Shown here: positions 6,433-41,773 of the stretch, piece after piece | How positions within the stretch are numbered: position 1 is the first letter of the stretch | Layout of the letters: every line of letters begins with the position of its first letter | Origin: an uncultured Lachnospiraceae bacterium | GTDB taxonomy: Bacteria > Bacillota > Clostridia > Lachnospirales > Lachnospiraceae | Length of the DNA stretch: 61,128 nt | Direction: 5' to 3' | Assembly (NCBI GenBank): GCA_910585065.1 | Contig: CAJUCG010000001.1 | Location: forward strand, 1 to 61,128 | Notes under the pieces: model-generated | What the model saw: the letters and a program-made list of their open reading frames with translations, nothing else | Databases searched by the model: none | Told to the model about the DNA's origin: nothing | Program-made: the position numbers and the translations under genes

Positions 6433-6435
6433 ATT

Positions 6436-6478
6436 AGAAAAAAGAAACGAGCCGTCACAGAAAATTCTGTAACGACTC
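6436..6478 (-). terminator. Rho-independent terminator after the DUF3793 gene
   Basis: Minus strand GAGUCGUUACAG-AAUUUU-CUGUGACGGCUC (two G-U pairs) followed by GUUUCUUUUUUU. Confidence 0.55.
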
Positions 6479-6501
6479 ATTTCTGACAGGCGGCGCACCC
6501 C

Positions 6502-7062
6502 TTAATCCTGTGGAGCAGCCATTGCAAGCTGCATGATGCTTTCGCCCTCCTGCCACAGACGCATATACGCCTTGCTGCAGCGTCGAAGCCTTGCAAAAGC
6601 ATATTTCGCGCTCTCTTCCTCTGCGTACACTTTCCAATATCCGGCGCATTTGCAGTGCCGCCCACCATAATGGATAAATCCTATCACATCCCTTGGCGGA
6701 TATCCCAAAAACAATCCGATCTCATGTGGAAACCCGTCTTTTTTCAGGCGCGCGCGCAATGTTGCAATCGCGTCGTCCTCCTTTGGTGTTTTGTAGCCGT
6801 AATGCTTAAGAATCCGAAAAGCCATGGGGTCTGAGAGGTCGCGTTTTAATTCCCCTGGTCGATACATATAGATCAGTGCATTTTCTTTCTTTTGAAGCAT
6901 ACACAGCTTTATCCCCTTTTTATGCAGGCATAAATTCCAGCAGGCCAAGCTTTTCTCAAGTTCTGCTTCCACACCCGCAGGATAGGAAAACAAATTTGCT
7001 GTTTTTAAGGAAGCCAATGTCGGCGCGCAATATTTGATTAAATATTTTTCCAGTCGTTCCAT
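6502..7062 (-). CDS. DUF3793 family protein
   Basis: MERLEKYLIKYCAPTLASLKTANLF...FPHEIGLFLGYPPRDVIGFI...CKCAGYWKVY is the pattern I associate with DUF3793. The ATG at 7062 follows GAGGAGG. Confidence 0.65.
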   Translation of the reverse strand: MERLEKYLIKYCAPTLASLKTANLFSYPAGVEAELEKSLACWNLCLHKKGIKLCMLQKKENALIYMYRPGELKRDLSDPMAFRILKHYGYKTPKEDDAIATLRARLKKDGFPHEIGLFLGYPPRDVIGFIHYGGRHCKCAGYWKVYAEEESAKYAFARLRRCSKAYMRLWQEGESIMQLAMAAPQD

Positions 7063-7136
7063 TTTCCTCCTCTTCAGTTGATTGTTTTTCACTTCCTCTG
7101 TTATCTTTCCCGCAAAACAAAAATTCATACGGATAT

Positions 7137-8459
7137 TTATTGTACTACTATTGTTTCGTATTTTAATGTCAAATAATTTTCATACATTTTCCTGCCGATC
7201 TCGTTTGCCGTGTAGAGCGGACCGCCCGGATACTCGCAAAAAATTCGCTCTCCTCGGTATTCCGGATGTGTAAGGCGGTAAATATTCTCATAAGGTTCGG
7301 TCAGTTTGTGAAGTTTTGTTACATTTTCCGCAATTAAATCCTCCTGCATCTGCATCATTTCCTGCGCCGTATAAAATTTTCCGATATCCTGGTTCATATA
7401 CTTTGCCCAGAATACTTTCTCCCTGTCAATATACACGGAATCCCCGACCGTTATCGTATAATTTGGCACTCCCTTATCCGTTCCACTAAGGAATTTTCCA
7501 AATTCTTCCATATCTATTTTATCATCCAAAAAATCTTTCCAGAAATTCTCATTGGAGGCAAAGCGCATATTCCAGTCCGCAGGAAACTCCTCCAAAAATT
7601 TCATCACCTTATTGTATTCTTCCTTGTTGTTAAAACGGATTGACCATTCCTCTCCCGTTTCCCCAGCTTTTCTACAAAAAATTCCATCTTCCGTATAGCA
7701 GGTAATATAATGGGCGGGTTCCTCCTGCTTACTGGACGGGTAAGTTGCCATCGTATAATTGCCAGCTAAAAGAGAGGTCTCCCGCGCCCTGGTTTGCTTT
7801 TGCTGACTTGCACTATTTTCCTTTTCCTCCATCCTCTTTTTATGTTCCTCGCGCATCTGTGTGCGAATGGAGTCTTCTAGCTCGTCAAACTTCTCCAAGA
7901 GTTTATCCCATTCCCGCTCTGTAAAAGAGGCGGCACCAATCAGGTAACTTGGCTCCGACTCCCCATTTTGAAATTTAACATAGAGTTCCTCAATAGTTTT
8001 CTTTAGAAATTTCCGGTAATCCATAGTTTCCTTTGTTTCTGAAGGTTCTTCGGTTTCTGAATTTTCCAATTTTTGGATCACCGACTGGTAAAACTCCCTT
8101 TCCTGCGCGCGGTACTGTGCAATCCCCATACTCTTTGTCTTGGCAAGCGGATGCTCCAGATCATAGAGCATGGTCTTTACCGCCTGCAATGCCGAAGCCA
8201 CACTGCCACCAAATACATCCTCCGGATTTATCGTGCCATTATACTGATTTTCCAACTGCTGCACGGTAATCTGAGAGATATGATTCATTTTTCCGTAAGG
8301 GTGATAGCCTGACTCCTCTGCTGCCTGGCGAATCGCCTCCTTTACCGCCTCCGGTGCATTTGGCGCGAACGAAAAAAAGTCCATCTCCTTCTGCGCAGAC
8401 TTCGCCTTTGCCGGGTAAACAGATCCAGAATACCCGGCTTGTACTGCTCCTACTGTCAT
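7137..8459 (-). CDS. Hypothetical 441-aa soluble protein with no recognisable family. It has an N-terminal domain, an E/K-rich coiled-coil-like centre, and an aromatic-rich C-terminal domain.
   Basis: Long clean ORF. The ATG at 8459 follows AAAGGAGGAA (the ORF-track start at 8519 is a TTG without an SD). Confidence 0.75.
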   Translation of the reverse strand: MTVGAVQAGYSGSVYPAKAKSAQKEMDFFSFAPNAPEAVKEAIRQAAEESGYHPYGKMNHISQITVQQLENQYNGTINPEDVFGGSVASALQAVKTMLYDLEHPLAKTKSMGIAQYRAQEREFYQSVIQKLENSETEEPSETKETMDYRKFLKKTIEELYVKFQNGESEPSYLIGAASFTEREWDKLLEKFDELEDSIRTQMREEHKKRMEEKENSASQQKQTRARETSLLAGNYTMATYPSSKQEEPAHYITCYTEDGIFCRKAGETGEEWSIRFNNKEEYNKVMKFLEEFPADWNMRFASNENFWKDFLDDKIDMEEFGKFLSGTDKGVPNYTITVGDSVYIDREKVFWAKYMNQDIGKFYTAQEMMQMQEDLIAENVTKLHKLTEPYENIYRLTHPEYRGERIFCEYPGGPLYTANEIGRKMYENYLTLKYETIVVQ

Positions 8460-8680
8460 GTTCCTCCTTTCTGCAGTCCATCTGACAATCCGGACTGCGC
8501 CGCTCTCCAAATGGTCCAAGCGGCTTATCTCTGCGCAGACTCACATATAAGCTGCGCGATCTAGTGGGCTGACAAAAGCTCTTTAACTACAAGATGGCAC
8601 TATGACTTTCCTTTCTCCATCCTGGAAATCACAGTGCCATCCATAGCATCCATAAAATTATCTTATTTTTTGTCAAACCC
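8460..8680 (-). promoter_or_regulatory. About 220-nt structured 5' leader of the 441-aa gene (candidate cis-regulatory RNA, class unknown)
   Basis: Stems seen by eye: GAUGGCACUGUGA/UCAUAGUGCCAUC (13 bp), GCUUAU/AUAAGC enclosing UCUGCGCAGA, CCGCU/AGCGG, and GCAGUCC/GGACUGC abutting the SD. Confidence 0.35.
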
Positions 8681-8687
8681 GATCTAT

Positions 8688-8714
8688 ATATCGGCAGAAA
8701 GCACAAAAAATTTA
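8688..8714 (-). promoter_or_regulatory. Sigma-28 (SigD/FliA) type promoter, exact consensus
   Basis: Minus strand TAAA (8714..8711), TTTTTTGTGCTTTCT (15 nt), GCCGATAT (8695..8688). The -35 overlaps the larC stop codon. Confidence 0.65.
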
Positions 8715-10028
8715 ACCCTCTACTTCCCTCTGTATTTTTTCATAAGCTTCGCTCAATCCAATCTTTTGTTCCCTTGCAATTCGCGCGATATCTTCATATT
8801 CATATTTTTCACGGAGAAAATTTTCACCAAAAAAGCTGCCTTCCGATTCCTTGCGGCGCACCGTTCCATAAGGAGTTTCAATGGATGTGATCTTACGCTC
8901 AAGAAGATAGCGCGCGCGCTCCGCCTTGCGAATACCGATGGTGGTGGTATGTTTAAACAAAAGTGCTGCCATCTGCACTTCTTTCTCCGGCGCACATAAA
9001 ACAGTAAGCAGCACACCCGGACGTGCCTTTTTCATTCCTGCGGGCAGAGTAAAGACCTCAAGCGCGCCCCCCTCAAACAAGCGTTCCATTGCAAAGCCTA
9101 TCGCCTCCGCTGTCATATCGTCAAGATTGCAGGAAAGTTCAAGTACCTTATCCGTCAAAAACATCGTATCCTTTAGGGGTGCATCCAAATCCTTTAGCGA
9201 CTCGCCAAGAAATGCGCGGACACAGTTTGCTTCCTTAAAATCCTTTTTCCCCATACCGTACCCAATCGCCGCAGTTTTCATTACTGGCATTTCCCCAAAG
9301 CGCGTGGCAAAGTGTTTTAACAATGACGCTCCGGTCGGTGTACATAATTCTCCTTTTACATTGCCGCCATAAATTGGCACATCCTTTAAAATATATGCCG
9401 TAGCAGGCGCGGGAACTGGCAGAATACCGTGCGCACAATGCACTTGTCCGCTTCCGACATGGATCGGCGAAACTACCACCTCCTCCGGTGCCAAACGCTC
9501 CATCAACATACAGACCGCAGTGATATCTGCAACCGCATCGAGCGTGCCAACCTCGTGAAAATGAATCTCTGTGACAGGGGCATTATGTGCATAGCTCTCC
9601 GCCTCCGCAATCAGGCGGTATACTGCCATAATATCTTCCTTAACCTTCTCTGAAAGTGCAAGATGTTCACGCACAAGATGCTCAATATCGTTCAGGACCG
9701 TGTGGGAATGTGTGTGGTTATGGGAATGCTCCGACGAAGGTTGTTCGTGCATATGATCATGGGAATATTCTGACCTCTCATGCGAATGGTTATGAGAATG
9801 TTCTGATACATCATAACTTTCCTCATGCACACCATTCACGGTAACAGAAATATAGGTTCCCGAAATTCCACATTTCATGGTCTTCTCTCTCTCCATCCGC
9901 ACACCGGGAAGTCCAAGAGCAGCAAATTCTTTTAAAAATTCCTCCGGATCAGGCAAAAGTTCTAAGAGTGCTGCGGTGAGCATATCCCCAGCAGCCCCCA
10001 TCCCACAATCAAAATAAAGGGTTTTCAT
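8712..10028 (-). CDS. larC: Nickel-pincer cofactor biosynthesis protein LarC (nickel insertion)
   Basis: MKTLYFDCGMGAAGDMLTAALLEL N-terminus and a His-rich tract HSHNHSHERSEYSHDHMHEQPSSEHSHNHTHSH. Confidence 0.9.
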   Translation of the reverse strand: MKTLYFDCGMGAAGDMLTAALLELLPDPEEFLKEFAALGLPGVRMEREKTMKCGISGTYISVTVNGVHEESYDVSEHSHNHSHERSEYSHDHMHEQPSSEHSHNHTHSHTVLNDIEHLVREHLALSEKVKEDIMAVYRLIAEAESYAHNAPVTEIHFHEVGTLDAVADITAVCMLMERLAPEEVVVSPIHVGSGQVHCAHGILPVPAPATAYILKDVPIYGGNVKGELCTPTGASLLKHFATRFGEMPVMKTAAIGYGMGKKDFKEANCVRAFLGESLKDLDAPLKDTMFLTDKVLELSCNLDDMTAEAIGFAMERLFEGGALEVFTLPAGMKKARPGVLLTVLCAPEKEVQMAALLFKHTTTIGIRKAERARYLLERKITSIETPYGTVRRKESEGSFFGENFLREKYEYEDIARIAREQKIGLSEAYEKIQREVEG

Positions 10029-10109
10029 AATCGATTCTCCTTAATTTTTAGTTCTTATTTTTAGTTCCGCAGAATCCCCTCCCAACACCGGAAGGAATTC
10101 TATTGTTTT

Positions 10110-10859
10110 TTAAGTCCGCATATGATTGATCATGCTGGCGAGATACCCCGCACCAAAGCCATTGTCAATATTTACCACAGATACACCGCTGGCGCAGGAA
10201 TTCAGCATGGATAAAAGTGCTGACAGTCCGTGAAAAGATGCACCGTACCCCACACTTGTCGGCACGGCAATCACAGGGCAGTCCGCAAGCCCGCCAATCA
10301 CGCTGGCTAGTGCCCCTTCCATCCCCGCAATTGCAATAATTACACTTGCCCCCATAATTTCCTCCAGATGCGCCAATGTCCGGTGCAGCCCTGCCACACC
10401 AACATCGTAGAGCCGCACGATCTCATTGCCTAGAACCTGCGCAGTCAAGGCGGCTTCCTCCGCTACAGGAATATCACTTGTCCCCCCCGTCGCCACCACA
10501 ATTTTTCCCATACCGCCGGGCGCGGGGATCTCGCCGACAACCCCGCAGTGTGCCTCCGCATAATAGGAAAGCGGATGTACCTTTGCAATCTCCCTGGCGG
10601 ACTCTTCGGACAGCCGAGTAATCAGCACCAGATCCTGCCCATTTTTTTTCATAGCATCTACAATCCCTATGATTTGTTCTGTAGTTTTTCCTGCGCCGTA
10701 AATAACTTCTGCCGCTCCCTGGCGCAATCTGCGGTGCATATCCACCTTCGCATAACCGATATCTTCAAAAGGTTTTATTTTTAGGCGCAGCATCGCGTCA
10801 TCCACAGAAAGCGTTCCATCGCGCACTCCTGCAAGCAGTTCCCGAATATCCTGACTCAT
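10110..10859 (-). CDS. larB: Nickel-pincer cofactor biosynthesis protein LarB (AIR-carboxylase-like)
   Basis: DxxRxxRxGxxEVIYGxGKT and VATGGTSDIPVAEEA...AIAGMEGAL blocks. Confidence 0.9.
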   Translation of the reverse strand: MSQDIRELLAGVRDGTLSVDDAMLRLKIKPFEDIGYAKVDMHRRLRQGAAEVIYGAGKTTEQIIGIVDAMKKNGQDLVLITRLSEESAREIAKVHPLSYYAEAHCGVVGEIPAPGGMGKIVVATGGTSDIPVAEEAALTAQVLGNEIVRLYDVGVAGLHRTLAHLEEIMGASVIIAIAGMEGALASVIGGLADCPVIAVPTSVGYGASFHGLSALLSMLNSCASGVSVVNIDNGFGAGYLASMINHMRT

Positions 10860-10889
10860 TTTTATCCCCCTAGATAATTCTTCTCACAA

Positions 10890-11645
10890 TTAATTCATCT
10901 CTCCACGCGCCTGTAAATCAAGTGTTACCATATCAAAATATTTTTTAAACTCCCCCAAAACTTCTCTCCGATTTTCTATCAACCGCGAAAAATCTTTCGC
11001 GGACAGTTGTATCCTTGCATTCTTTTTCTGTATTCGGACGCGGACATCCGTAAATCCAAGCGAAAAAAGAAAATTTTCTGCCATTTCTACCGCCGCAAGT
11101 TTTTCCTGTGTAATCTCTTCCCCCGTCGAAATCCTTGTGGCAAGACAGGCATAGGCGGGCTTATCCCAGGTAAATAGCCCCGCCTCCCTTGACAGACGGC
11201 GGATCTCGTCTTTGGTCAGTCCGGATTCCCGCAGTGGTGAATACACGGAAAACTCTTTTAGTGCGCGCATTCCCGGTCGATCTCCTGCATCATCGGATGC
11301 ATTTGTCCCATCAAGCAGTACAGAAAAACCATCAACAGCAGCCGCTTTTGCGATCGCGTCAAAAATCACCCGCTTGCAGTGATAACAACGCTCCTTCGGA
11401 TTTTCACAAATATTCGGATTTTCAAGAATATGAAGTTTTAACACACTCAATTCCACATCTAACATCACCGCAAATCGCAGTGCATCCTCATATTCAAACT
11501 GCGGCTGAAATTCCGATTTTACATAGTATGCGCGAACCTTTGTGCCGCAAGATTTCGCGGCAAAGAGCAGATAAGCGGAATCCACCCCACCAGAAAAGGC
11601 AACTGCCACTTTTTTATGTTGTAAAAAAAAATCAGATAATATCAT
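10890..11645 (-). CDS. larE: ATP-dependent sacrificial sulfur transferase LarE
   Basis: PP-loop VAFSGGVDS and conserved Cys in PAYACLATR. Confidence 0.9.
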   Translation of the reverse strand: MILSDFFLQHKKVAVAFSGGVDSAYLLFAAKSCGTKVRAYYVKSEFQPQFEYEDALRFAVMLDVELSVLKLHILENPNICENPKERCYHCKRVIFDAIAKAAAVDGFSVLLDGTNASDDAGDRPGMRALKEFSVYSPLRESGLTKDEIRRLSREAGLFTWDKPAYACLATRISTGEEITQEKLAAVEMAENFLFSLGFTDVRVRIQKKNARIQLSAKDFSRLIENRREVLGEFKKYFDMVTLDLQARGEMN

Positions 11646-11714
11646 CGGCTGTCTCCTTTTTCCCTGTTCCTGACAATGATCGCTTCCTGCAGTTTTCAGG
11701 AGCCACCACCTTTT

Positions 11715-11773
11715 AAGGCTCTGAAAGCCTTATAATCACTTAGAAATGCGTGATTACAAGGCTTTCAGAGCCT
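11715..11773 (-). terminator. Long nested hairpin downstream of tsf (probable terminator or RNA-stability element)
   Basis: Arms 11715..11739 and 11750..11773 pair over about 24 bp with one mismatch. Each arm contains its own AAGGCU...AGCCUU mini-palindrome. The T-run is only on the plus-strand side. Confidence 0.45.
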
Positions 11774-11810
11774 CATATTTTTTACGCTGTTCTGTTATGC
11801 AAACCTTTTC

Positions 11811-12746
11811 TTACATTCCCATCTGCGCTGCAACTTCCGCTGCAAAGTTCTCACTCTTCTTCTCAAGACCTTCGCCCGTCTCAAAACGCACGAAACGCTT
11901 GATCGAAAGGTTCGCGCTATTTTTCTTTGCAACCTGAGCCAAATACTGCGCTACTGTCTGTTCTCCCTCCTCATCCTCAGCCTTTACATAGATCTGATCA
12001 AGCAGGCAGATTTCTTTAAATTCCTTGTTGATACGCCCTTTAATGATCCCATCAATCACATTGGCAGGTTTCTTGGACTGTTTTTCGTCCTGCATAATCT
12101 GCGCTAAGATAATCTCTTTCTCATGATCGATAAAGTCCTGCCCGATCTCATCCCTCGAAACATATTTTGGACTGAGTGCTGCAACCTGCATTGCCACATT
12201 AGAGAGTGCCTCTTTGACCGCATCATTTACCACATCTGTAGCCGCCTCAACAATCACACCGATTCTGCCGCCGCCATGGGTGTAAGTAACCACGCAGCCA
12301 TTTTCTGCCGTAACTTTCTCAAATCTGCGGATGCTCAATTTCTCACCGATCGTCGCGATCTTCTCCACTAAAGCTTCCTGTACAGTATCTGCATCGATAA
12401 ACGGTGCAGCAAGAAGTGCGTCCACATCTGCATAATCTCCTTGTACAATCACATCGGCAACCTGCCCTACAAAGGTTTGGAACTTCTCATTCTTTGCCAC
12501 GAAGTCCGTCTCGGAATTGACCTCTACAACCGCTGCGCTATTGCCCTTTACTGCGATCCTGCAGATCCCCTCCGCAGCGATACGGCTTGCCTTCTTCTCC
12601 GCTTTTGCCTGACCTTTCTTTCTCAAAAATTCAACGGCCTCATCCATATTTCCTTCTGTCTCAACAAGAGCCTTCTTGCAGTCCATCATGCCCGCACCGG
12701 TCATCTCTCTCAAATCCTTTACCATCTTTGCTGAAATCTCAGCCAT
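11811..12746 (-). CDS. tsf: Translation elongation factor Ts
   Basis: MAEISAKMVKDLREMTGAGMMDCKKAL... is the canonical EF-Ts N-terminus. Confidence 0.95.
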   Translation of the reverse strand: MAEISAKMVKDLREMTGAGMMDCKKALVETEGNMDEAVEFLRKKGQAKAEKKASRIAAEGICRIAVKGNSAAVVEVNSETDFVAKNEKFQTFVGQVADVIVQGDYADVDALLAAPFIDADTVQEALVEKIATIGEKLSIRRFEKVTAENGCVVTYTHGGGRIGVIVEAATDVVNDAVKEALSNVAMQVAALSPKYVSRDEIGQDFIDHEKEIILAQIMQDEKQSKKPANVIDGIIKGRINKEFKEICLLDQIYVKAEDEEGEQTVAQYLAQVAKKNSANLSIKRFVRFETGEGLEKKSENFAAEVAAQMGM

Positions 12747-12815
12747 TATAATCCCTCCGTTCGTTTACAATTATTTTGTAGTCCTATATTTTTCACGCCT
12801 AAAATGCGATAAATC

Positions 12816-13556
12816 TTATGCTTCCTGCTCTTCCTCGACAGCCTCGGCTTCCTCTGGCACATCGCTCATGGAAACACCCTGGTTTGCCTCGATTACCGCG
12901 TCCGCCATCTTTGCCACAATCAGTTTTACCGCGCGGATCGCATCATCATTACCCGGAATTACATAGTCAAGCTCTTCCGGATCACAGTTTGTATCTGCAA
13001 TGCCAATTAACGGAATTCCTAAAGTATGCGCCTCCTGAATACAGATTCTCTCCTTTTTCGGATCTACAACAAAAATTGCATCCGGGATATTCTTCATCTC
13101 CTTAATTCCGCCAAGATTTTTTTCCAATTTTTCCCATTCTTTTTTCAGTGCGATAACTTCTTTCTTTGGAAGTACCTCAAATGTGCCGTCCTCCGCCATC
13201 TTCTCAATCGCTTTTAATCTTGTGACTCTGGACTGGATTGTCTTGAAATTTGTCAGCATACCGCCGAGCCATCTCTCATTGACATAGAACATACCGCAGC
13301 GTTCCGCCTCGGATTTAATGGAATCCTGCGCCTGCTTTTTTGTCCCCACAAAGAGAATCTTTCCGCCATCGGCAACGATATCCTTGATTGCGTAGTAAGC
13401 CTCGTCCACCTTGCCCACGGATTTTTGCAGATCGATAATGTAGATGCCGTTTCTCTCCGTGTAAATATACTCCGCCATTTTCGGGTTCCATCTTCTTGTC
13501 TGATGACCAAAATGAACCCCTGCCTCAAGTAACTGTTTCATTGAAATAACGCTCAT
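12816..13556 (-). CDS. rpsB: 30S ribosomal protein S2
   Basis: [27 protein letters not shown]. The ATG at 13556 follows GGAGG. Confidence 0.95.
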
Positions 13557-13706
13557 GTCTTTTTCCTCCATTTGGTTTTTCTACCATAGCCATGTCCGCT
13601 GGCAACTTCAACCGTCCTTTACCCGGCACCAAAAGACCGCTCAAGGCTATGTGATTTCTATATCGGCACAGCATATCACCAATTTGCCGATATTTACGAC
13701 TTATAG

Positions 13707-17248: not shown

Positions 17249-18004
17249 CTATCCAAAAAACAAATCCATATTGCCACCAAGCCGGGTTCTCATTTTTTGC
17301 AGCGCCTTTGTATGGAGCTGTGAAATCCGTGATTCAGTCACGCCGAGAACCGCGCTGATCTCCTTTAATGTCAGCTCTTCAAAATAATACAAAAATATTA
17401 CTTTTTGTTCTTTCTCCGTCAGTTCCTTTAATGTGCGTGTAAGGATCTCTTTTAACTCCTTCCGCTCCATAATGCGTTCCGGCTGCACATAGTCCTCGCT
17501 GGTTCGTGTGACCTCCACCTGCGGTTCCCCCGCCTCCATACACTCGTCGAGTGAGACGAGGGCGGAGATCTGTGCCTGCGACTGCAGAGTTAAAAGCTCA
17601 TCAATTGAGATTTCAAGTTCTTTTGCCACTTCCTCTTCCGTTGCCATGCGCCCAGTTTCGGCTTCGATCTTTAAATACGCTGCATCTAATTTTTTTTGTT
17701 TTTGCCGCAGCGTCCTTGGAATCCAATCCATTTTGCGCACTTGATCAAGAATCGCGCCACGAATACGCAGTGAAGCGTAGGTCTCAAATTTTACGCCTTT
17801 ATCGTAATCGAATTTGTCGATCGCATCGATCAGACCAAAAGTTCCATAACCGACAAGATCGTCATATTCCACATTATAGCCCAGATACATGCTTAACTTT
17901 CCCGCCACAATCTTTACCAGCCCGACATACTCTAAAATTAGCTGTTCCCGCAACGCGGCGGTTCGCTTTACACTGTATTCCTCCCATAATTTTTGTTTGT
18001 CCAT
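17249..18004 (-). CDS. fliA: RNA polymerase sigma-28 factor (FliA/SigD/WhiG)
   Basis: Regions 2-4 are present: DDLVGYGTFGLIDAIDKFD, IRGAILDQVR and LTLKEISAVLGVTESRISQLHTKAL. Confidence 0.9.
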   Translation of the reverse strand: MDKQKLWEEYSVKRTAALREQLILEYVGLVKIVAGKLSMYLGYNVEYDDLVGYGTFGLIDAIDKFDYDKGVKFETYASLRIRGAILDQVRKMDWIPRTLRQKQKKLDAAYLKIEAETGRMATEEEVAKELEISIDELLTLQSQAQISALVSLDECMEAGEPQVEVTRTSEDYVQPERIMERKELKEILTRTLKELTEKEQKVIFLYYFEELTLKEISAVLGVTESRISQLHTKALQKMRTRLGGNMDLFFG

Positions 18005-22273: not shown

Positions 22274-23407
22274 TTAATGTACCCCCACATTCTTCGTGAT
22301 TGCATCTGCTACCGCATCGAGCGGAACGACCTCATCCACAAGCCCTGCCTCGGCCACCACTCTTGGCATACCGTACACAGTACAAGTCGCCTCATTCTGC
22401 GCGATAACGTAGATGTTCTTTTTGTTGTTGAGCTGCTTGATTCCAAGCGTGCCATCCCCTCCCATCCCGGTGAGGACAACGCAAGTAATATCTTCAAAGT
22501 CCAAATCTACAAGAGACTCGTACATGATATCCGCACACGGTCTTAGACCGCCCCGCGCCGGTTCATTTGCATTCTCCGTAATTACGTAATCCCCGCCCCG
22601 CCGCACAACGCGCATCTGACTGCCACCCTGGGCTATGTAGACTGTCCCTTTCCTTAAAACATCCCCCTCAGCTGCCTCCTTGACATTGATCGCGCTCATC
22701 TCGTTTAGACGGTCAGCAAGCGATTTTGTAAATCCCACTGGCATATGCTGCACAAGGATCATCGGCGCGTCAAGCTCTGCTGGAAGTTTAGGAATCACAG
22801 ACTGCAATGCCTTTGGACCGCCGGTAGAGCAGGCAAGTGCCACAAGTTTTTTCGCGCCGCTTCCCACACTTTTATGTGTCGCACGCTTTGTTGGTGCTGA
22901 GGTGACATCATAGAGTGCCCTTGTCGCGGACGGTTTGATTAAGGACGGACGCGCGGAGGAAGGCTCCGGCTTCTCTTTTGGCGGAATCCCGATATCCACC
23001 CCCGTTGCCACACCGACCGTTGATAAAATCCTCTGTTTAAACCGCTCATTGCGCGCCTCCATATAACTGTCCGGCTTCGTTACAAAGTCGAAAGCACCAA
23101 GTTCCAGACAGCGCACTGTTTCCACTGCGCCCTCCTTTGCAAGGGTACTTACCACAATGATTTTCTGACGGATTTTCATTTTGTTCAGCTGTTCCAAAAA
23201 TTGGATGCCATTCATCTTAGGCATATTGATGTCAAGCAAAATTGCCTCGTATTTTTTGGGATCGCGCGTTACAAGATCAAATGCTTCCAGTCCGTTCATC
23301 GCAAGGTCGGAGACCTGGAATCTCTCGTCACTATTTATTATATCAGATATCAGTCTTCTCATAAGTGCAGAATCATCAACAACTAAAATATTTTTTTTGC
23401 TTTCCAT
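22274..23407 (-). CDS. cheB: Protein-glutamate methylesterase/response regulator CheB
   Basis: REC domain (ILVVDDS...LDINMP) plus an esterase domain (ACSTGGPKAL, VQHMP, GMGGDG). Confidence 0.9.
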   Translation of the reverse strand: MESKKNILVVDDSALMRRLISDIINSDERFQVSDLAMNGLEAFDLVTRDPKKYEAILLDINMPKMNGIQFLEQLNKMKIRQKIIVVSTLAKEGAVETVRCLELGAFDFVTKPDSYMEARNERFKQRILSTVGVATGVDIGIPPKEKPEPSSARPSLIKPSATRALYDVTSAPTKRATHKSVGSGAKKLVALACSTGGPKALQSVIPKLPAELDAPMILVQHMPVGFTKSLADRLNEMSAINVKEAAEGDVLRKGTVYIAQGGSQMRVVRRGGDYVITENANEPARGGLRPCADIMYESLVDLDFEDITCVVLTGMGGDGTLGIKQLNNKKNIYVIAQNEATCTVYGMPRVVAEAGLVDEVVPLDAVADAITKNVGVH

Positions 23408-23484
23408 TTTCTTCCTTTCCTTTCCGATTTCGGCACTGTTTCATGACTGTGCCCCGTCCATTTTCATTAAAAAGGTACAAACGA

Positions 23485-24165
23485 TCACCTACTGCTCTCT
23501 CTTTTGCGCCGTTTCTCCTCTTCAAATACATATTTTACAATAATTTCCCGATCCGCTTCGCTGATATTTGTAAATTCTACACGGTTCTCATAAATTTTTT
23601 TGCGGTTTTTAAGATCTGCGCTGGCAATGACTTTTGCTCGAAGCTGAAATTCACTTTTGTTCTCTCCAAGCAACAGTGCAAAACTAATGCCAAGTTCCTC
23701 CCCCGGCAAAAAGGCTTCCTCCGCGTTAAAACGCGCGCCGCCCCCGCTGATATCAACAATAGTCGCCGCTTTTATGTCCTCCGCCAGTTCTCCCTCCTGC
23801 GCCATCGGTCGGTAATACATATCGATAATACAGTTTAAGCGAAAAAATTGTCTGCACTGAAATTTTTCTATCTCCGAGGCACACTCCATCTTTACCAGGA
23901 AAAGCTGTTCCAGGCAGTAGCGGTCACTTACCTGCGCGATACAATAATAAAGTTCTTCTTTGGCATGAAAAAACATATTGTAGCGTTCCCCGATATCAAG
24001 AAAAACCATTTTTTCCTCCATCGGCATTGCAATCACCAGGGTATCGTCATCTTTTACCTCTGTCAGCTGACCAACCAACGTCCTTGCCCCCGCGATCTCC
24101 TTTAATTTCCCCGTGTACTTTGTCAGCGTGATCTTTTGTCCGATAGTTAGCCCTCTTGCCATCAT
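23485..24165 (-). CDS. YcgR/MotI-like PilZ-domain protein (c-di-GMP-responsive flagellar brake candidate)
   Basis: RQFFR (RxxxR) and DISGGGA (DxSxxG) motifs in the C-terminal half, with a PilZN-like N-terminal half. Confidence 0.8.
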   Translation of the reverse strand: MMARGLTIGQKITLTKYTGKLKEIAGARTLVGQLTEVKDDDTLVIAMPMEEKMVFLDIGERYNMFFHAKEELYYCIAQVSDRYCLEQLFLVKMECASEIEKFQCRQFFRLNCIIDMYYRPMAQEGELAEDIKAATIVDISGGGARFNAEEAFLPGEELGISFALLLGENKSEFQLRAKVIASADLKNRKKIYENRVEFTNISEADREIIVKYVFEEEKRRKRESSR

Positions 24166-38782: not shown

Positions 38783-38861
38783 AGTAAAATGACCTCCTTA
38801 TTTTACGTTCCCCGACCTCTGTCATTCAGCCGGGAACCGCCCCCTTTTGTGGTCCGGCGGT

Positions 38862-39269
38862 TTAGCCTATCACTGCTCCATCAATATTGGTAAATACTTT
38901 GTCGTCGCCCCCTGCCACCGCAGTGACCACGATATTATTTCTTGTATTTACAATAAATGCATAACTGTCCACCATAACAAGCGACTCCACAATTCCCTTT
39001 TGCTGTGCCTTTGCCGCACCGGCAAAAAGCCGCTTTACCTGTTCCTCGGACAGATCAATGCTCCGATCCAAAAGCCTCTCATTCGCGTGCTTTGAAAAGC
39101 GCAGCGGACTTGCCTCGGTTTCTAAATTTTTCCTCTCCTGCTTTTGACGCAGCAGGATATTTTCAAAAGAATCCTGTACTGCCCTGCCCCCCGAAGTCTT
39201 TCCTGCCGGTTGGCAAAGTTTGCTCGTCATTTGTTCGATGGAAGAAAAGCTGTTCTTTATCTGATTCAT
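38862..39269 (-). CDS. TIGR02530-type flagellar operon protein
   Basis: FSKHANERLLDRSIDLSEEQ...VMVDSYAFIVNTRNNIVVTAV. The ATG at 39269 follows GGGAGG. Confidence 0.7.
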   Translation of the reverse strand: MNQIKNSFSSIEQMTSKLCQPAGKTSGGRAVQDSFENILLRQKQERKNLETEASPLRFSKHANERLLDRSIDLSEEQVKRLFAGAAKAQQKGIVESLVMVDSYAFIVNTRNNIVVTAVAGGDDKVFTNIDGAVIG

Positions 39270-39324: not shown

Positions 39325-40167
39325 TTACTCTTCGGTCTTATCCGTTTTGTCTGTTTTGTCTTTGTCCCCTTCCGTCTTATCTCCCTCGGTCTTATCGGTA
39401 TCATTCGGCTTTACTTCCTCCGGCTTTACCTTGGAATTTACAATCTCCACGGAAATCTTATCCTCAATCGTCGTATAATCGTTGTCGTTAAAGACTACTG
39501 CAACCGCATATGATCCGTTTGGCAGATCGGCAAACGCACCGCCAAAAATTGTAAGTTTATTGCCGTCCAGCTTGAAATTCGAAGGATCAATCAATTTCTT
39601 GTTGATGACTAATGCTACCTCGTCCGCCGCGTACTCATCCTCACCAAGATTTACCTCAACAATACTTGCTGACGGCTTATCTGCATCATACTTAAACTTG
39701 TAGCTCTTGTCGATGGACGGAGCGCAGACATTCTTTACATAGCTCTCATCCATAACCGCATACAGATCATCAATATCATAGAGCTTCCCATTGACATAGA
39801 TCTGCACAGTCGTTCCGGAGGCATTGACATACTGCACTTTCCCCGCTACCTGTGTTTCCTTGCCTGTGGAATCCTCCGAGTTGACAATAACATCCTTGCC
39901 AATCAGCGAGAACGCCTGGGACTTCTCATAGGAAGCATTCAAATTCTGCATCTGCTCAAGCTGCGAGAAAGTCGCGAGCTGTGATACAAACTCCGTATCA
40001 TCCTGTGGGTTTAACGGATCCTGATTCTGGATCTGACAGACAAGAAGCTGCAAAAATGCATCTTTGCCAAGTTCTGATGTCCCCTTGGTCTCCTTCTTTG
40101 TGGTCGTGATCGCATTGTTCGCATCCTGCAATACACCATTTACTACTTTTCCAACTAATTCCGCCAT
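39325..40167 (-). CDS. flgD: Hook assembly/capping protein FlgD with an extra Ig-like C-terminal domain and a KTEGD/KTD repeat tail
   Basis: LGKDAFLQLLVCQIQNQDPLNP FlgD motif. Confidence 0.85.
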   Translation of the reverse strand: MAELVGKVVNGVLQDANNAITTTKKETKGTSELGKDAFLQLLVCQIQNQDPLNPQDDTEFVSQLATFSQLEQMQNLNASYEKSQAFSLIGKDVIVNSEDSTGKETQVAGKVQYVNASGTTVQIYVNGKLYDIDDLYAVMDESYVKNVCAPSIDKSYKFKYDADKPSASIVEVNLGEDEYAADEVALVINKKLIDPSNFKLDGNKLTIFGGAFADLPNGSYAVAVVFNDNDYTTIEDKISVEIVNSKVKPEEVKPNDTDKTEGDKTEGDKDKTDKTDKTEE

Positions 40168-40183
40168 AATTTCCTCCTTTCTG

Positions 40184-41773
40184 CTATGCCGTGTAGTCTA
40201 CCTGGTTTCCACTTCGCTCCATCAGATCAGCAGCGATCTGCTCTGCTTCCGACATCCCCTGCGGCAAGCCACCATCATTTATGGACTCGTCAAAGCGAAG
40301 ACCTCTTCTGCCTCTCTGTCTGTTCTCCTGGCCACCATTATTTGCCGCGGCACCGCCGTTTTGGGTAAAATCAAAATTGGAAACTGTCACTTCGATCGCC
40401 TCAACCTTAAGTCCCTGGCTCTCCAAATTTTCGCGAAGCACCACCATCTGGCTTTGGATCGCTTCTTTTGCCACCTCATTCTGCGCCGTAAAATGCGCGG
40501 TCAGTGCCCCATGTCTTGAGACGAGGTTTAGGGTTACTCTCCCAAGGCTTTCCGGCGTTAAAGAAATCTCCATCGAAGTCTGCTTATCACTTAATACCAC
40601 ACGCACCTTCTCCAAGATCTGATCTGCCACCGCCCGAACCTGCTCAGCTTTTGAGAGCTGTGCAAACTCTGCCTCGTCCGTCTTCGCCGCATCCGCAACG
40701 AAATTTAAGAATTGATCTCCCAGTGTGGCTTGACCCGGCTTCACATCACTTCTCGTCCCATGACTGTCAGTATGATCGGAAAGACTCTCTTTTGCTGCCT
40801 CCCCGCTCTCTCTTACCGCTTCAAAAGTAAATCCTGTCTCCTTTTGCCCCTGCACCTCTCCCTTTAGCATATCATCGCCAAGTTCTTTCTCTGATTGTTT
40901 CCCAGTATTTTCCACTTTGGTTTCCACAACCTTTTCGTCCGGATTTGCGGTTTTTGCCAGAACTTGTGCAAAATCCGATTCCTCCGCATCTCCAGCGGCC
41001 TTTTGTGACAGGAGAGCATCCTCTTCTCCCAGTTTAGGAATTTCCACCGTCTGGGAAAGTTCTGAGAGATCAGTTTGAATTTCCTCCGCCTTTGCAAGCA
41101 AATCCTTCAGAGTATTCATTGCGGACTCATTGGTCAGCAGTCCCATCGGATCGCCGCCACATTCTGCGTTTACAACAAGTTGCTGTAAAAGCTGCGGCTG
41201 TAACATCCCCTGCATATTGGTTCCCATCTGCTCTAAGAGTTGTTCTAACTCCTCCTCGTCCATCTGCAGCGAATCCATAATTGCCTGTTTTAACTCGCCG
41301 AGTTTCTGCATCTCCAAAATCTTTGATGCCTCACGAAAAAGTTTTAAGCTTTTGACAAAGCTGGTATCAAGCACCGAATTCTCCCCGGAATCCGAAGACA
41401 CCAGATCCCCAGAAAGCACTGGCTCATCCGGCAGTTCGCCCTCCGGCATATCCCCCGGTTTCTCTCCCTGCTGTACTTTTCCTTCAACTCCCTGTGGATT
41501 CTCTTTTGTTTCCTGCGTCATCTCAGGTGCTTTTGCTACTTCCCTCTCGCTGCCCACATCTTTTGCCGACGATGCATTTGTCGTCTGTGCGCGGCTTTCC
41601 TGCGCGCGCTCCACCTTTGTCTGGGCGGTAGAAGAGACCTTTTTCGAGGAAGCACTCGCGGACATCATATCGGAAAAAGAAGTGCCGCCCGCAGTGCGAT
41701 TGCCTGCGCGTGTCCCCACGGATGCCACTTTTACAGAGCGCGGTCCCGCTACTTGTACTCCTGATGTTGTCAT
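40184..41773 (-). CDS. fliK: Hook-length control protein FliK
   Basis: Long disordered acidic region plus a C-terminal Flg_hook domain (MEISLTPESLGRVTLNL...TAHFTAQNEVAKEAI). Located between ylxF and flgD. Confidence 0.75.
   Translation of the reverse strand: MTTSGVQVAGPRSVKVASVGTRAGNRTAGGTSFSDMMSASASSKKVSSTAQTKVERAQESRAQTTNASSAKDVGSEREVAKAPEMTQETKENPQGVEGKVQQGEKPGDMPEGELPDEPVLSGDLVSSDSGENSVLDTSFVKSLKLFREASKILEMQKLGELKQAIMDSLQMDEEELEQLLEQMGTNMQGMLQPQLLQQLVVNAECGGDPMGLLTNESAMNTLKDLLAKAEEIQTDLSELSQTVEIPKLGEEDALLSQKAAGDAEESDFAQVLAKTANPDEKVVETKVENTGKQSEKELGDDMLKGEVQGQKETGFTFEAVRESGEAAKESLSDHTDSHGTRSDVKPGQATLGDQFLNFVADAAKTDEAEFAQLSKAEQVRAVADQILEKVRVVLSDKQTSMEISLTPESLGRVTLNLVSRHGALTAHFTAQNEVAKEAIQSQMVVLRENLESQGLKVEAIEVTVSNFDFTQNGGAAANNGGQENRQRGRRGLRFDESINDGGLPQGMSEAEQIAADLMERSGNQVDYTA

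Follow-up and report, generated by a model that had tools for sequence, protein, structure and literature searches.

The present analysis concerns a 61,128-nucleotide (nt) stretch of DNA from an uncultured Lachnospiraceae bacterium (GenBank assembly GCA_910585065.1, contig CAJUCG010000001.1, positions 1 to 61,128 of the forward strand), referred to throughout as the window, and within it a promoter motif on the minus strand at 8714..8688 which is very probably a functional sigma-28 (FliA/SigD) promoter for the gene of a 440-amino-acid (aa) protein of family DUF8329. Promoters of this kind are known; what would be new is the placement of the whole DUF8329 family in the sigma-28 regulon, together with an undescribed leader RNA, termed R1 below, that the gene has in common with flgE. 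The gene and the elements of its promoter are the following.

7137..8459, minus strand: coding sequence of the 440-aa protein, family DUF8329 (PF27009) by the mark on its homologues, function unassigned, first 23 residues predicted to be disordered
8711..8714, minus strand: -35 element TAAA, overlapping the larC stop codon and followed by the T-rich stretch TAAATTTT
8688..8695, minus strand: -10 element GCCGATAT, which reads TGCCGATATA with the preceding T
8678..8681, minus strand: predicted transcription start, placed 7-10 nt 3' of the -10 element, where the conserved GGGTTYGG begins in 7/7 syntenic leaders

The minus strand at 8714..8688 reads TAAATTTTTTGTGCTTTCTGCCGATAT, i.e. TAAA-TTTTTTGTGCTTTCT-GCCGATAT. 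A reading of the same DNA made earlier from the letters alone (the sequence-only reading) had described this site as a zero-mismatch instance of TAAA-N15-GCCGATAT and the sole full match in the window, and our scan of both strands of the 61 kb likewise returned it as the single exact match. The accompanying estimate of 0.007 chance matches is the equal-frequency figure (122256/4^12); dinucleotide shuffles yielded a mean of 0.02 exact matches, with one match in 2 of 100 shuffles. The overlap of the -35 TAAA with the larC stop codon was also seen correctly, the larC open reading frame (ORF) being 8712..10028. One-mismatch sigma-28-like sites in the window are all poorly placed, lying within genes, on the wrong strand or in a palindrome before rpsB. 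This last is an inverted repeat at 13660-13693, ATATCGGCA...TGCCGATAT, with one such match on each strand (that on the minus strand being CAAA-N15-GCCGATAT), and is probably a hairpin and not a promoter. A sigma-A promoter at TTGACA (8675-8670) was considered and rejected: it has no acceptable -10 element, was not reported by the scan, and is TTGGCA or TCGGCA in the orthologues. A single match where 0.02 are expected is only suggestive, and a comparison with other genomes was therefore needed; the comparative data place the site beyond chance.

The homologue sample consisted of 75 loci obtained from a scan of one genome per species. Sixty-nine carry a family or genus label, which is Lachnospiraceae or one of its genera except for five Clostridium/Clostridiaceae and two Bacteroides labels, and the other six have no label at either level. 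Cultured carriers in the sample are Lachnospiraceae bacterium 10-1 (L061), Lachnospiraceae bacterium 48-33 (L023) and Clostridium sp. KNHs205 (L040). With start codons that were rough estimates at this point (the true starts were later fixed by the R1 element), TAAA-N14-16-NCCGATA was present within 600 nt upstream of the estimated start in 36/75 loci. Across 1.16 Mb, both strands included, the motif matched 57 times, 50 times on the gene strand and 7 times on the other. The density of the core motif was 0.87/kb in the 450 nt upstream of the leaders, 0.047/kb in the rest of that strand and 0.010/kb on the opposite strand, so that in Lachnospiraceae DUF8329 loci it is enriched about 84-fold upstream of the leaders relative to the opposite strand. 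In 25 non-redundant sites the bases flanking CCGATA, which had not been selected for, were T at -2 in 23 cases and G at -1 in 20; W followed CCGATA in all 25 and was itself followed by A (+7) in 23. A T-rich stretch follows TAAA in these promoters, and their spacers show no conservation. That unselected flanking bases fit the sigma-28 consensus while the spacer varies supports the assignment to sigma-28.

The same picture emerged on a finer scale from the seven syntenic larC-DUF8329 intergenic regions, in which the -35 element and TGCCGATA form invariant islands within diverged DNA; in their alignment the AA of the -35 element and the TTT that follows it do not vary. The motif also precedes non-syntenic homologues that have unrelated upstream genes. 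The sequence-only reading had suggested looking for the motif upstream of orthologues, and it is indeed kept in 7/7 syntenic loci and in distant homologues too, with a diverging spacer.

Flagellin genes served as a positive control, for which 80 Lachnospiraceae-type flagellin loci from metagenomes (L085-L164) provided 72 non-redundant upstream regions. TAAA-N16-CCGATA is found in 44 of the 72, at 111-251 nt before the ATG and typically as CTATAAAGTAT...TCCGATATATA, and the distance of 16 nt from TAAA to CCGATA in the window is that of the flagellin promoters. The sigma-28 consensus of Butyrivibrio fibrisolvens has been given as TAAA-N16-17-MCGATAa (Neville et al. 2013, PMC3720852), and in Roseburia and Eubacterium the flagellin genes are preceded by sigma-28-type promoters at a distance of 47-375 bp (PMC3720852), from which it follows that the 220-nt distance between promoter and ATG in the window is normal for the group. 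The DUF8329 promoter thus resembles late-flagellar sigma-28 promoters (B. subtilis hag; fliC of Butyrivibrio, Roseburia and Eubacterium) in having the same TAAA and GCCGATAT, 15-16 nt apart, and its gene resembles late-flagellar sigma-28 genes in standing alone, away from the flagellar operon that encodes the sigma factor. Unlike the targets of those promoters, DUF8329 is known neither as a flagellar or chemotaxis protein nor as an autolysin. With the motif kept in homologues and the same motif and spacing found in flagellin genes, the proposal that a sigma-28-type promoter is aimed at the 440-aa gene is well founded.

17249..18004, minus strand: sigma factor gene of the FliA/SigD/WhiG family, matching TIGR02479 FliA_WhiG with 265 bits against a cut-off of 189.6

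This gene, which the sequence-only reading had named as that of the cognate sigma factor, is identified as FliA/WhiG by TIGR02479, and sigma-70 regions 2, 3 and 4 were found in its product. It is located downstream of CheW, CheC and CheD, at the end of a Bacillus-like flagellar-chemotaxis operon (FliK, FlgD, FlgE, MotAB ... CheW, CheC, CheD), 9 kb from the promoter.

Between the predicted transcription start and the start codon lies a structured leader, whose best conserved part is R1, a double hairpin that in the window directly abuts the ribosome-binding site and that has a relative upstream of flgE.

8473..8524, minus strand: R1 double hairpin, with hairpin A (8524-8499) containing an internal GGACC and hairpin B (8498-8473) carrying the loop GGAUUGUCAGAU; 91.6 bits by cmsearch
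8463..8467, minus strand: Shine-Dalgarno sequence GGAGG, inside the invariant GAAAGGAG
38784..38865, minus strand: related double hairpin upstream of flgE (FlgE by Pfam), in a 79-nt gap; 26.9 bits, E 1.2e-6 with the R1 model

Hairpin A can be written GCCGCUU-GG-ACC...GG-AGAGCGGC and hairpin B GCAGUCC-GGAUUGUCAGAU-GGACUGC. Thirty-five copies were used to build a covariance model, which detected R1 in 59/75 homologue loci, with 68/68 matches on the gene strand and nearly all of them immediately before the homologue's start codon. Pairing was maintained in 97.5% of cells, with compensatory changes in 10/16 pairs; 0/500 shuffles reached the observed pairing values, and slid controls also fell far below them. 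The conserved features of the element (L001-L075, L080-L084) are the internal GGWCC and the loop GAnUGMCAGA. Searched against Rfam 15 at the gathering threshold, the leader region gave no match, the sole match in the window being a tetrahydrofolate (THF) riboswitch elsewhere, and an E-value search of 8400-8760 returned chance-level matches only.

The same two hairpins precede flgE in five other loci (59-84% protein identity), with compensatory changes in the stems, and neither the invariant GGACC nor the loop GAWTGMCAGA is lost in the flgE copies. A literature search for an RNA motif at flgE in Clostridiales found nothing. Judged by this covariation and distribution, R1 is an undescribed structured RNA common to DUF8329-family genes and, in six genomes, flgE, and its presence in both leaders provides an independent link of the DUF8329 gene to flagella. 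R1 was not found before flagellin genes in the flagellin loci examined, so that, unlike flagellin leaders, the DUF8329 leader carries R1; the element is accordingly not a general late-gene leader and marks flgE and the DUF8329 group. Two weak R1-like matches on the minus strand, one at 40152-40241 (13.1 bits) upstream of flgD and one at 23392-23489 (10.4 bits) upstream of the gene at 22274-23407, may be due to chance.

Upstream of R1, the leader contains a further domain at its predicted 5' end.

8566..8680, minus strand: 5' leader domain with a closing long-range helix, in which 8680-8668 pairs with 8577-8566; it encloses the GGAUG-rich hairpin
8593..8651, minus strand: GGAUG-rich element with GGAUG at 8651-8647, 8642-8638 and 8622-8618, and a long hairpin at 8642..8593 with the loop CAGGAUGGAGAAA

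The stretch of 226 nt between about 8682 and the ATG has a much more stable predicted fold than its shuffled versions (z = -5.4). The closing helix, assessed by eye and by minimum-energy folds only, is formed in the folds of the window and of six syntenic leaders with a partner sequence that is different in each: GGGTTYGG, which begins 8-10 nt after the -10 element in 7/7 syntenic leaders, pairs with a sequence, variable between loci, on the far side of the long hairpin. In these models the 5' edge of the conserved leader structure appears to coincide with the predicted transcription start. The long hairpin at 8642-8593 has a stem of about 19 pairs, is flanked by two copies of AUGGAUG, and is kept in 14 loci, non-syntenic ones included, with compensatory change in 4/15 pairs. 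Its tail is weak in the window, where it is only CUUGUAGUU, and is UUUUU in L002, L006, L007, L024 and L041.

The leaders are also rich in potential sites for the RNA-binding protein CsrA. In 25 of them, GGATGG was observed 15 times vs 1.8 expected and GGA 212 times vs 105 expected; the leader in the window has 11 GGA and 3 GGAUG in 229 nt. Lachnospiraceae flagellin leaders contain a short hairpin, GCAGC-AUGGAWG-CUGC, followed by AAGGAGG, and their overall layout (sigma-28 promoter, a 5' stem-loop CAAGTAAAC...GTTACTTG, an GGAGCGTACGGCCGG box, this hairpin and AAGGAGG) looks like a conserved CsrA-type leader. In the B. subtilis hag leader, which is under CsrA/FliW control, one site is in an upstream hairpin and one lies over the ribosome-binding site (PMC7652899). 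The AUGGAUG heptamer of the DUF8329 leader is the heptamer in the loop of the flagellin leader hairpin, and we propose CsrA control because the heptamer is common to the DUF8329 leader and to these flagellin leaders with their two-site layout. The DUF8329 leader further resembles the CsrA/FliW-controlled hag leader (PMC7652899) in having GGA/GGAUG in and beside a hairpin loop and a GGA-containing ribosome-binding site, and its AUGGAUG is close to the CsrA consensus RUACARGGAUGU obtained by SELEX. Although the loop CAGGAUGGA and the two flanking AUGGAUG copies are present, the stem of about 19 pairs is atypically long for CsrA sites, in which it typically has no more than 4 pairs, the GGA excess is partly inherited with R1, and the GGWCC of R1 frequently reads GGUCC, to which CsrA would not bind. 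From these sequence features the GGAUG-rich hairpin probably binds CsrA, and the domain at 8566-8680 could serve CsrA binding, attenuation or both. A search for csrA, fliW, flgM and flagellin genes in the window and in the loci collected by then found none; csrA is located in the flgM locus of six related genomes (PMC3720852). A leader peptide encoded by the 17-codon ORF from the ATG at 8653-8651 was rejected, this ORF not being kept in orthologues and L002 having no ATG there.

Gram-positive bacteria possess 5'-terminal stem-loops that stabilise mRNA, as in the aprE, hag and ermC leaders of B. subtilis. The DUF8329 leader is comparable to these in that R1 or the closing helix is at or near the predicted 5' end and R1 is next to the ribosome-binding site; in L026, L029, L058, L060 and L070 a mere 10 nt or so separates the promoter from R1. 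The flgE copy of R1 lies between two genes of a long operon, a place in which processing to a stable mRNA would be plausible. Unlike a plain stabiliser, R1 has conserved loop and bulge sequences (GGWCC, GAnUGMCAGA), which a plain stabiliser would not need and which point to recognition by a specific partner.

We envisage that the sigma-28 holoenzyme would bind TAAA (8714-8711) and GCCGATAT (8695-8688) and start transcription near 8680, by which the DUF8329 gene would be tied to the late stage of flagellar assembly, as flagellin is. The transcript would open with a structured leader of about 220 nt, made up of the domain closed by the 5' helix, the GGAUG hairpin inside it, and the double hairpin at the ribosome-binding site. 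The GGAUG-rich hairpin would probably be bound by CsrA, as is thought for the flagellin leader hairpin, and R1 would probably stabilise the mRNA or bind a flagellum-specific factor that sets translation.

Homologues of the 440-aa protein, including the 99%-identical P0001, all carry the precomputed PF27009 (DUF8329) mark; searched against a local copy of Pfam that did not contain PF27009, the protein itself gave only a sub-threshold AIP3 match, and NCBIfam gave no match. A literature search for DUF8329 found nothing. The family comprises 732 clusters at E <= 0.001 in a 50%-identity library and is essentially confined to Lachnospiraceae. The AlphaFold model of the protein (mean predicted local distance difference test score 78, predicted template modelling score 0.39) is helical in its N-terminal half and also contains a helix of 50 residues and a small domain of beta-sheet. 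Additional copies of R1 precede small proteins (150-205 aa; one of 455 aa) without a Pfam family.

Extra R1 copies: L059 2365-2986; L067 3031-3652; L053 5586-6277; L042 6403-7044; L079 16228-17666

Several of these R1-led proteins share a module with the N-terminal repeats of longer DUF8329 proteins, its consensus being roughly V..V.P.NA[ST]..[DE]M.A[YL]S, and the N-terminal pattern M-x-[VIL]-[GSN]-x-[VI]...Y15 is common to DUF8329 proteins and the extra R1-led proteins. In L067, a sigma-28 promoter precedes the first of two tandem R1-led genes.

Several points weigh against a late-flagellar, sigma-28-dependent DUF8329 gene. The dependence on sigma-28 is itself deduced from sequence. In 24/68 leaders no motif, even with one mismatch, is present within 450 nt; in some of these cases the promoter appears to be carried by another gene located ahead of the leader. 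The gene and its upstream region could have been duplicated together, which would partly explain the conservation among homologues. The DUF8329 homologue loci are scattered and none was found inside a flagellar cluster, and a structure search of the PDB with the AlphaFold model gave no match below E 0.01, leaving the protein with no recognisable fold or family of known role. Finally, the UUUUU behind the upstream hairpin in several relatives implies that many transcripts may stop before the gene.

Among the alternatives, the one that fares best concerns not the promoter but the extent of the unit that it serves.

6502..7062, minus strand: DUF3793 gene (Pfam PF12672, E 5.6e-53)
6434..6484, minus strand: terminator-like hairpin and T-run after DUF3793, with a 19-pair stem, a 4-nt loop and then TTTTTCT
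7102..7130, minus strand: promoter-like box before DUF3793, consisting of GTATG (7130-7126), N15 and GGAAAGATA (7110-7102), kept in 7 syntenic loci

According to the sequence-only reading, the promoter drives a two-gene operon of DUF8329 and DUF3793. Its structural details mostly stand: Pfam confirms the DUF3793 gene at the place given, the terminator after it is present as a terminator-like hairpin (6484..6443) followed by a T-run, and the upstream ORF at 7137..8459 is real, although it encodes 440 aa and not 441, the 441 codons including the stop. As an obligate operon forming one motility-linked module, however, the pair now seems rather doubtful. The two genes are on the same strand with a strong terminator after the second, and the 74-nt gap between them in the window has no terminator-like hairpin, so that read-through into DUF3793 is possible there; yet DUF3793 follows DUF8329 in only 6/75 loci, all of them closely related and syntenic, the other 69 having no DUF3793 downstream, and even in the six loci that keep the pair the gap rises to about 100-780 nt. 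The conserved GTATG-N15-GGAAAGATA box precedes DUF3793 in all the syntenic loci, reading CTTCCAGTATGAAATTTT..GCGGGGAAAGATAA just before the gene, and it seems to resemble the GCATR-N15-GGHRARHTX consensus of forespore SigF; perhaps DUF3793 belongs to sporulation and is transcribed from a promoter of its own. Nor do the sigma-28 motif and the R1 leader travel with DUF3793, which is probably a separate unit, perhaps one that receives read-through transcripts in this genome. By these comparisons conservation extends over promoter, leader and DUF8329 as a unit and not over the gene pair, and the suggestion of a motility-linked candidate holds for the 440-aa gene, in view of the leader element it has in common with flgE, and not for the pair.

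A second alternative accepts the promoter and places its main product elsewhere, in a short leader RNA ending at the GGAUG-rich hairpin, which would be an intrinsic terminator or attenuator; DUF8329 would then be produced only from transcripts that escape termination, or else the short RNA would act by itself, for instance as a CsrA sponge. We consider this unlikely. The stem of about 19 pairs at 8642-8593 and the UUUUU behind its counterparts in the five loci named above are what a terminator would have, and the GGA and GGAUG content of the window leader, with GGA twofold enriched across leaders, is what a sponge would have, but the tail in the window is only CUUGUAGUU. In L043-L051 and L071, moreover, the hairpin has a poor U-tract and precedes the ribosome-binding site by about 10 nt, and hence is not an obligatory terminator there, and L026, L029, L058, L060 and L070 have the promoter right at R1 and no upstream hairpin at all.

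That the match arose by chance, or that GCCGATAT is an arm of a small hairpin (CCGAUAUAUAGAUCGG) ending the larC transcript and has no promoter function, as the sequence-only reading had allowed, is very improbable: some 0.02 exact matches per window is not negligible over many windows, CCGAT and ATCGG are able to pair in the window and larC has no other terminator, but orthologues keep GCCGATA and TAAA exactly and at the right spacing while the pairing partner shifts in position and sequence (ATCGG, ATTGG, ATCAGG, CCGG or none), no U-tract lies behind the small hairpin, the motif recurs before the non-syntenic homologues, and the strand bias is 50 to 7. With the CCGAT partner differing or missing among orthologues, the pattern of invariant islands fits a protein-binding DNA site and not a small RNA hairpin.

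If DUF8329 genes are late sigma-28 genes, the question arises of what their products might do. In Campylobacter jejuni, sigma-28-dependent non-flagellar proteins (FspA, FlaC, Cia) are exported by the flagellar type III apparatus (PMC2764114, PMC5223770). DUF8329 is similar to them in having a sigma-28-type gene outside flagellar clusters, no Sec signal and a predicted disordered N-terminus, and in that a short N-terminal motif is common to otherwise different DUF8329 and R1-led proteins. It differs in having no sequence relation to them and in being encoded by a Gram-positive gut commensal, and export is conjecture here. We know of no counterpart in the Campylobacter cases to an mRNA leader in common with flgE. 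By this analogy we raise, as a tentative idea to which we assign a low probability, that DUF8329 and the small R1-led proteins may be an unrecognised class of late sigma-28-dependent cargo of flagellar export and R1 a flagellum-specific cis-regulatory RNA; if so, R1 could make the translation of the cargo, or its transport to the export gate, dependent on the state of flagellar assembly.

In gut Lachnospiraceae such as Roseburia, Eubacterium and their relatives, flagella are a major stimulus to the immune system, and to our knowledge the flagellar regulon of the family beyond the structural genes is unexplored. The assignment proposed here would give an uncharacterised family of 732 clusters at 50% identity a regulatory address in the late flagellar, sigma-28 regulon, and recommends DUF8329 as a good candidate when new flagellum-linked functions are sought in gut bacteria. 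Its study could reveal new flagellum-associated or secreted proteins as well as a new, post-transcriptional level at which flagellar assembly is controlled in Gram-positive bacteria.

Of the genes around the promoter, larC (8712..10028) encodes a protein that matches Pfam Ni_insertion and NCBIfam LarC and is preceded by larE and larB; these nickel-pincer cofactor genes, larE, larB and larC (8712-13571, minus strand), are located directly downstream of rpsB-tsf. The hairpin scan of the window found no terminator-like site after larC, and lar transcripts may consequently run into the DUF8329 leader. The THF riboswitch that was the only Rfam match in the window is at 2672-2768 on the minus strand (87.8 bits, E 4e-19).

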